Shown one piece after another: positions 41,033 through 41,581 of a stretch of 64,000 nucleotides of DNA. The translations under genes and the position numbers were made by a program. The notes below the pieces were generated by a model. That model was not told where the DNA came from. It was given only the letters and a program-made list of their open reading frames with translations, and made no database searches. Source of the DNA: Escherichia phage vB_EcoM_EC001; the sequence record MN445185.1. One strand, written 5' to 3'. Numbering within the stretch: position 1 is the first letter of the stretch; each line of letters starts with the position of its first letter.

Positions 41033-41581
41033 ATGGCAGTCATCTCTGCAAAAGACCAACTCGTCGCGCTGTTTAATGCCGCAAACAGCGGACTGCCTAG
41101 TCCGTTAACTGCTGCTGACGTTACATTCGGCGCTGTTGCTGACTATTCACCAGCTGATTCTGGAGACACTCGCAACTCCAAACTCACCATCACCGCCACC
41201 GCGGAATCCGCTAACTTTACTGGCGAGAAAGAGCTGCATTATACCCGCCTCAATTTATCGGACTTCATCGGTGCGAAAGCAGTGACCGCTGACCAGGCAG
41301 AATGGGATACCGATGAAGAAGTGCTTGCTTTTGTCAACGCAGAACTATTTGGCGACGGTGAAACGGAAGATCCGTTTGCGTTGTCTGAACTCACCATTTC
41401 ACGCGAAGACGGCAGCAGTGGTGAGAAAGTCATCACTGTTATGGTGAAAGAAGGCCACATTAAATTCCAACCTGTCAGCCTTGGAGTTTATACTGTAACG
41501 CAGCCAATCGTTAAAACTGACCTGAGCACCACCAACGGTGAACTGGGCGGATTCGGCGGCGAAGGTCACGCTGGCATGTAA
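41033..41581 (+). CDS. Short paralog-family protein (182 aa) with C-terminal NGELGGF
   Basis: Family N-domain (DTRNS..Y.R.NL); AAGGAAA SD. Confidence 0.65.
   Translation: MAVISAKDQLVALFNAANSGLPSPLTAADVTFGAVADYSPADSGDTRNSKLTITATAESANFTGEKELHYTRLNLSDFIGAKAVTADQAEWDTDEEVLAFVNAELFGDGETEDPFALSELTISREDGSSGEKVITVMVKEGHIKFQPVSLGVYTVTQPIVKTDLSTTNGELGGFGGEGHAGM

Follow-up and report, generated by a model that had tools for sequence, protein, structure and literature searches.

A 14-residue peptide at or near the C terminus of three proteins in a 64,000-nucleotide window of the Escherichia phage vB_EcoM_EC001 genome (MN445185.1; the window is the whole stretch of DNA analysed) is best explained as a conserved peptide module, in which the inter-subunit linker of the DUF7941 family (Pfam PF25613) is used as a portable C-terminal donor tag. 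On balance, the tag is probably a donor peptide of this family that carries the same short motif as the linker between the two domains of full-length members and docks in trans, as we infer, on the N-terminal domain of another subunit. An earlier note on this DNA had suggested a docking, chaperone-recognition or processing site. [quoted passage not shown]

Positions 27769-32634 are 95-99% identical to Salmonella phage SPN3US and its relatives (Seoulvirus, phiKZ-like jumbo phages) and, judged from its sequence, the window is that of an SPN3US-like chimallivirus. In the SPN3US record the counterpart genes are annotated as a run of 'virion structural proteins'. SPN3US gp numbers were assigned to the window genes with two anchors, the 171-aa gp158 and the masses of the SPN3US proteome table. 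The three open reading frames are present, with their translations, as described earlier. They and their tags are:

27769..29181, + strand: A1, 470 aa; DUF7941 N-terminal domain, central domain common to B and C, 26-residue repeats and tag; SPN3US gp145 (50.8 kDa)
29134..29175, + strand: A1 tag, K456-F469, KTTLTSLNGELDGF; one residue follows, then the stop codon
31138..32634, + strand: A2, 498 aa; A1 paralogue of identical architecture; SPN3US gp148 (53.7 kDa)
32587..32628, + strand: A2 tag, K484-F497, KITLGDTNGELDGF; one residue follows
41033..41581, + strand: S, 182 aa; DUF7941 N-terminal domain and linker/tag only; SPN3US gp160
41513..41554, + strand: S tag, K161-F174, KTDLSTTNGELGGF; falls on the DUF7941 linker in alignments and has a variable tail of 8 residues after it

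In a six-frame translation of the window, NGEL[DG]GF occurs at exactly three sites (29155-29175, 32608-32628 and 41534-41554), each in the end region of a protein with a DUF7941 N-terminal domain. The expectation from composition is 1.2e-4 occurrences, and none were found in 200 codon-shuffled windows. The common motif in the C-terminal region of these three proteins, as the earlier note described it, is thus borne out, with amendments to its wording. The motif had been called short, and seven residues prove too few: the full conserved element is K-[TI]-[DNT]-L-x-x-x-[ND]-G-E-L-x-G-F, 14 residues, and the stretch homologous between the A tails and S spans about 32. It had also been called terminal, which holds for A1 and A2, where a single residue follows, and fails for S, which continues for eight Gly-rich residues, GGEGHAGM (41555-41578), the same as in cluster P0001 (257 member sequences). 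According to its reading frame, SPN3US gp160 ends one residue past GF (175-aa cluster P0006). The third A gene of SPN3US, gp151, is absent from the window; its product ends ..KTDLATANGELNGF, directly followed by the stop codon.

Synonymous differences between the copies affect five of the seven motif codons (GAA/GAG, CTG/TTG, GAC/GAT, GGC/GGA and TTT/TTC) and the flanking DNA is unconserved, indicating that conservation acts on the peptide and not on the DNA. This variation, together with retention of the peptide in orthologues at 30-60% protein identity, makes it extremely improbable that the motif is a DNA-level feature, such as a trace of recombination or gene conversion where cassettes meet, or a signal for translation, even though the A1 and A2 tags lie at module boundaries just before the ribosome-binding site of the next gene and the number of cassettes differs between phages (two here, three in SPN3US).

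The three proteins had been described as otherwise different, which does not hold: all have the same DUF7941 N-terminal domain, and A1 and A2 are paralogues of identical architecture. Against a gathering score of 27 bits, PF25613 scores 109 bits for A1, 105 bits for A2 and 47.7 bits for S (E 1.9e-12). In A1 and A2 Pfam finds no domain besides DUF7941; S gives a sub-threshold Spiralin match as well. An HMM built from the DUF7941 paralogues of the window covers positions 1-157 for A1 and A2 and 1-168 for S. [quoted passage not shown] Goslar gp23 likewise lacks this domain, so its absence does not exclude A1, A2 and S from the family. In total, 13 window proteins contain a DUF7941 N-terminal domain: F1-F7, A1, A2, T1, T2, S and the product of ORF 12031-12588. 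Besides the tagged proteins, these are:

21644..27721, + strand: F1-F7, full-length DUF7941 paralogues with N-terminal domain, linker and C-terminal domain; SPN3US gp138-144
22064-22111, 22908-22955, 23776-23823, 24667-24714, 25621-25668, 26474-26521 and 27374-27421, + strand: linkers of F1-F7, from the alignment; linker sequences F1 ITNTELSGLLYP and F4 VTQTKLDGLVYP
34629..35948, + strand: T1, DUF7941 protein to which a further domain (PHROG 6409) is added at the C terminus, without the NGELDGF tag; gp154
35963..38131, + strand: T2, two DUF7941 N-terminal domains, a T4 gp38-like adhesin and a PHROG 6409 C-terminal domain, without tag; gp155
12031..12588, + strand: thirteenth DUF7941 N-terminal domain (hmmsearch E 1.5e-16), without tag; acidic C terminus ..VLVLTDEEE (VLCLDENTVLVLTDEEE)

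PF25613 matches F6 and F7, the two that were scanned, over their full length, and the window-paralogue HMM matches all seven F proteins end to end. The glycine-rich adhesin domain of T2 matches Pfam GP38 (E 9e-19) and, weakly, gp38 in the PDB (9v85, E 0.0026); T2 is likely a receptor-binding chain end. ORF 12031-12588 is remote from the main cluster and precedes the gene of the 1005-aa tail protein (13055-16072) by two genes, or ~470 bp. It is possibly SPN3US gp122, a suspected family member that was undetected in virions (Ali et al. 2017).

A motif search in related phages, which the earlier note had recommended as a check on conservation, found the element kept in 59 S orthologues and in most A orthologues and paralogues. 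In the S orthologues (to ~45% identity), the tag K-T-D-L-S-T-T-[ND]-G-E-L-[DNG]-G-F is among the best conserved segments of the protein: the mean majority-residue fraction is 0.88 over the tag, 0.70 over the whole protein and 0.12 after GF, where the residues vary from 0 to 8 in number and are free in sequence. Almost all A1 orthologues and paralogues (to ~30% identity) end K-x-[DNST]-L-x3-[NDS]-G-[ED]-L-x-x-F. Absence from the homologues of related phages, which the earlier note had named as grounds for refutation, is thus not what is seen, and by this measure the tag is a real, selected element. A conserved tag beside free post-GF residues is what would be expected of an internal-type peptide ligand and not of a free-C-terminus signal; recognition of a free C terminus was rejected, given the 0-8 residues beyond GF. 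Self-cleavage or an isopeptide bond at Asn-Gly was likewise rejected, as Asn alternates with Asp.

In five sequences of the Erwinia phage Caitlin/Machina clade, A1 ends exactly before the tag (..YTPPES, stop) with the rest intact, indicating that the tag is a separable module that is dispensable for folding. The Caitlin A1 DNA shows a clean stop and the start of the next gene, with no frameshifted tag, and the tag is retained in Caitlin A2, A3 and S. This loss fits a separable docking module, in which a chain link would have been turned into a chain end. Caitlin also encodes an extra small tagged protein adjoining S (S2, L002 27525-28025, 166 aa, ..NWDGELDGFS), giving four tagged proteins in Caitlin, as in SPN3US. 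The presence of S2 alongside a tagless A1 could reflect compensation or be fortuitous.

The A tails and S share more than the tag. On alignment with hhalign, A1 residues 439-470 fall on S residues 143-175 (probability 96%, E 2.2e-9, 32 columns), and a match to PHROG 4862, the PHROG of the S family, covers A1 residues 437-470. The order in A1 and A2 is N-terminal domain, central domain (also in B and C; PHROG 1062), two or three tandem 26-residue repeats and tag. The elements involved are:

41459..41557, + strand: shared module, S residues 143-175; last beta-strand of the domain plus tag, common to the A tails
28918..29178, + strand: C-terminal tail of A1; 26-residue repeats in tandem, about three in number, such as PDTTDFEPVVVTSE and PKTVDFQPIAATAE; the final one continues into the tag
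32386..32631, + strand: A2 C-terminal tail, three 26-residue repeats, PRPLVFNTDNTETA, PRPLLATTDNDERA and IRPIILTTDQ...

Self-comparison of the A1 tail gives a score of 46 at offset 26 (shuffled maximum 31), and that of the A2 tail gives 46 at offset 26 and 30 at offset 52 (shuffled maximum 34).

The inclusion of a domain strand in the shared module is one reason to consider the tag as a structural element in cis, which would pack on its own N-terminal domain in S or cap the repeat array in the A proteins and be kept for folding or stability. The AlphaFold2 monomer model of S points the same way. It places the last beta-strand of the domain at residues 149-156 and a short helix at 164-166, and its pLDDT is ~90 over residues 151-170, including the first ten tag residues (161-170), with no partner present. 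However, in monomer predictions a trans-binding tail often ends up packed in cis, and for the equivalent linker of full-length DUF7941 proteins, disorder is described in models of the monomer and docking in models of the dimer (bioRxiv 10.64898/2026.04.21.720040). The A1 and A2 tags lie ~300 residues and three repeats away from an N-terminal domain that has its own last strand, and the Caitlin/Machina A1 proteins, which have lost exactly the tag, persist at 55-70% identity. A role in cis is thus unlikely, if still worth weighing. An AlphaFold2 pseudo-dimer, S-G30-S, was of low confidence (mean pLDDT 64, pTM 0.38, from an 18-sequence paired alignment), with tag values in copy 1 (58/43) slightly better at most than in copy 2 (37/36); comparing monomer and dimer pLDDT gives no read-out of docking, as tag residues 161-170 are already at ~90 in the monomer. 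A Foldseek search with the S model against the PDB gave no match at E <= 0.001, and PhiKZ gp127 was not retrieved.

The reading of the tag as a donor peptide draws on its relationship to the family linker. In 185 diverse full-length DUF7941 proteins, the linker between the N- and C-terminal domains follows L-x3-[IV]-T-x3-L-[DPN]-G-[LI]-x-Y-P (in the window, for example, LAEVITNTELSGLLYP in F1 and LSLVVTQTKLDGLVYP in F4). Independently, hhalign and MAFFT placed the S segment TTNGELGGF on the full-length linkers (F1 ITNTELSGL, F4 TQTKLDGL), and by both methods S has the linker motif at its native position after the N-terminal domain. A1 and A2 have none at that position; the feature is displaced to the C-terminal tag, where a matrix of linker sequences finds its best or second-best match. 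This nine-column scoring matrix was built only from the linkers of the 185 full-length proteins and scanned over whole proteins (~170-500 positions each), and in all 21 tag-bearing A and S proteins scanned its best or second-best match was the tag (best in 15). The tag ranked first in A2, S, SPN3US A3, Caitlin A3, Caitlin S and 10 of 12 A1 homologues, and second in A1, Caitlin A2, Caitlin S2 and 2 of 12 A1 homologues. No such match was found in the tagless Caitlin A1. The A2 tag is the top match in the whole protein, with a score of 11.2 that 0.7% of shuffles reach. Scores of single proteins are modestly above those of shuffled sequences (the fraction reaching the observed score is 0.003-0.8), and the matrix also picks up FT[NH]xEL, an unrelated site within the central domain of A and C proteins. 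The matrix is informative only collectively, and such a coincidence of position across independent paralogues is not plausibly due to chance. Tag and linker do differ: the two conserved Leu residues are 7 apart in the tag and 9 apart in the linker, and the tag lacks Y-P.

Related endings occur elsewhere in the family. A word-indexed homologue search with the family alignment gave mostly close relatives, and diversity was supplied by an exhaustive search (3621 representatives, E <= 1e-3). Among the latter, other, unrelated multidomain DUF7941 proteins end in a linker-like manner (P0209 ..TVLDGL.., P0259 ..TKDLNGF.. and P0262 ..PDLGGFDYP..).

The tag could alternatively dock on a partner outside the family, such as B or C, a baseplate protein or a capsid protein, and serve as a common virion anchor. 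An A gene is always found in a three-gene cassette, A-B-C (window 27769-34538, SPN3US L001 12001-22139 and Caitlin L002 16174-26295), of which there are two in the window and three each in SPN3US and in Erwinia phage Caitlin. The remaining cassette genes of the window are:

29193..31124, + strand: B1 and C1, partners of A1; a conserved opening, then the central domain shared with A (PHROG 1062)
32647..34538, + strand: B2 and C2, partners of A2 in the cassette

Neither a DUF7941 domain nor the tag is present in B1 or C1. B and C proteins open with a conserved M-x-[FI]-T-[LI]-R-W.., and the central domains of A, B and C all end ..[FIL]EL[VI]..; the opening reads as FN3-like, with no domain match, and no PDB entry was matched by sequence to the B/C central domain. 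The constant cassettes and the ~3 repeats of the A tails would suit an anchor of this kind; the repeats also prompted the idea that A, B and C might form one complex. In addition, the SPN3US members occur in tailless particles and are classed as head proteins, so that more than one point of attachment is conceivable. S, however, is tagged yet has no B or C neighbours, the tag aligns to a motif that is internal in every full-length DUF7941 protein, and the sole modelled partner of the linker is another DUF7941 N-terminal domain. We consider a partner outside the family quite unlikely.

The internal position of the same motif in full-length members also argues against a processing or chaperone-recognition signal that is cleaved, or is bound by the 'tail assembly chaperone' encoded at 39125-39766. 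The C-terminal position of the tag would be compatible with such a signal, and this gene (PHROG 1158) lies 1.3 kb upstream of S. Several observations speak against cleavage: the tag has N/D-G-E, whereas the SPN3US/phiKZ prohead protease recognises A/S/G-x-E, the processed SPN3US proteins that are listed include no family B members, Asn is freely swapped for Asp, against Asn-dependent self-cleavage, and gp160, which peaks in the lowest-mass slice with 89% coverage, has a listed mass of 18.5 kDa and no processed one. As for a chaperone, Pfam detects neither Peptidase_S74 nor any other chaperone domain, and the conserved element, at 14-32 residues, falls short of the ~100 aa or more of the S74 type. 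Processing or chaperone recognition is very improbable.

For a donor peptide, the nearest precedent is the 'fibre cloud' of phage Goslar, whose gp22 and gp23 belong to the same family, PF25613. [quoted passage not shown] Docking in Goslar is thus an AlphaFold 3 prediction backed by negative-stain filaments of gp22 and not a solved interface. S shares the gp23 architecture, its length (~180 aa) and its high abundance in virions, and Goslar linkers of the same type follow the N-terminal domain in gp34 (IKELDGLKF), gp33 (TVMTGLNFP) and gp22 (VTNLGNLTY). In a profile comparison of S with Goslar gp23, only residues 4-74, the N-terminal half, align (E 1e-4). Homology of the gp23 tail NVADGF to the tag was rejected as a claim, since the tails have no significant alignment and this is a resemblance only. 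The preprint defines no sequence motif and describes no members with a donor peptide at the far C terminus after an inserted domain and repeats.

PhiKZ provides a second comparison. Its gp127 (PDB 9xqd, chain PHIKZ127) matches the window DUF7941 profile (E 1.7e-25), including the linker region DISLLTKVNSFPTIVKWP. A gp126-gp127 heterodimer fits unassigned density at the outer baseplate, the linker and C-terminal domain of gp127 are proposed to hold the gp126 N-terminal domain at the outer peripheral baseplate, and the N-terminal domain alone of gp127 is modelled in 9xqd (all from bioRxiv 10.64898/2026.04.21.720040). Unlike A1, A2 and S, gp127 is full-length, with an internal linker and no C-terminal tag.

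[quoted passage not shown] S and other gp160-like proteins would then be the minimal chain link, an acceptor domain plus a donor peptide. A1 and A2 (gp145- and gp148-like) would also be links, with the donor peptide ~300 residues downstream, past a large domain and the 26-residue repeats, and this displacement would let a bulky domain be carried within the chain. A tagged protein would be an internal chain link, and loss of the tag would turn it into an end. Donor-strand or peptide-in-groove assembly is familiar from chaperone-usher pili, in which the terminal peptide of one subunit fills a site on the next to give head-to-tail fibres. The likeness is an analogy only: in both systems subunits lacking a donor would end the chain, but the two have no relationship in sequence or fold, and DUF7941 shows no evidence of an usher or chaperone. 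The shared module of strand plus linker motif and the two to three tandem copies of the strand unit in the A tails would also permit a donor-strand-exchange reading. Here, filaments would form by 3D domain swapping of the last N-terminal-domain strand, and the A proteins would be multivalent branch points that recruit B, C and the next subunit into a programmable branched heteropolymer, in SPN3US perhaps anchored on the head and not on the baseplate alone; we regard this extension as speculative and doubtful.

Where such chains would sit in the virion differs between reports. The SPN3US 'paralog family B' (gp83, gp138-154, gp161 and gp237, with gp160 marked B in tables) consists of the same genes, of which the window proteins are near-identical orthologues. 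Family B proteins are classed as head proteins, as they were found in tailless particles, with no function or motif given; gp160, gp145, gp148 and gp151 were detected in virions by mass spectrometry, and gp160 ranks with the most abundant proteins of the virion; its peak is in slice 1, the gel slice of lowest mass (89% coverage), and the mass given for it is the predicted 18.5 kDa, without a processed form (Thomas et al. 2016, Ali et al. 2017). SPN3US proteomics also lists gp155 as a 'head' protein, although the adhesin domain of T2/gp155 points to host recognition and speaks against a role of the family inside the head. The conflict between the head (SPN3US) and the baseplate periphery (PhiKZ, Goslar) may be reconciled in one of two ways: either the filaments co-purify with heads, or their attachment differs between phages.

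Nucleus-forming jumbo phages have few virion components as abundant, or as poorly understood, as the DUF7941 proteins, of which SPN3US has ~20 paralogues. Filaments proposed to form by linker docking have already been described for Goslar, and what is new here is a defined motif and a probable donor peptide displaced to the far C terminus. If the donor-peptide reading is right, the proposed self-assembly would be tied to a defined, portable peptide of 14-32 residues, and deleting or transplanting the tag should break or redirect the incorporation of specific subunits, which would bear on the 'fibre cloud' model and on the question of head versus baseplate. Cargo or new receptor-binding domains could then be grafted onto phages. 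For annotation, a DUF7941 N-terminal domain accompanied by a tag or linker would be taken as a chain link, and one that has neither as a chain end.

Two further kinds of C terminus were observed in the family. T1 and T2 have a common second terminal module (PHROG 6409), ..YYD..G.M...PY[ST]K[TS]AP.PW..., and similar endings are found in representatives P0267, P0268 and P0286. In P0188, P0196, P0205, P0225, P0226, P0238 and P0316, tandem N-terminal domains are followed by low-complexity L/F-x-D-G-G/S arrays, for example ..DGFLTDGGSQVNFDGGAPFQLD, which could be multiple degenerate copies of the donor motif.
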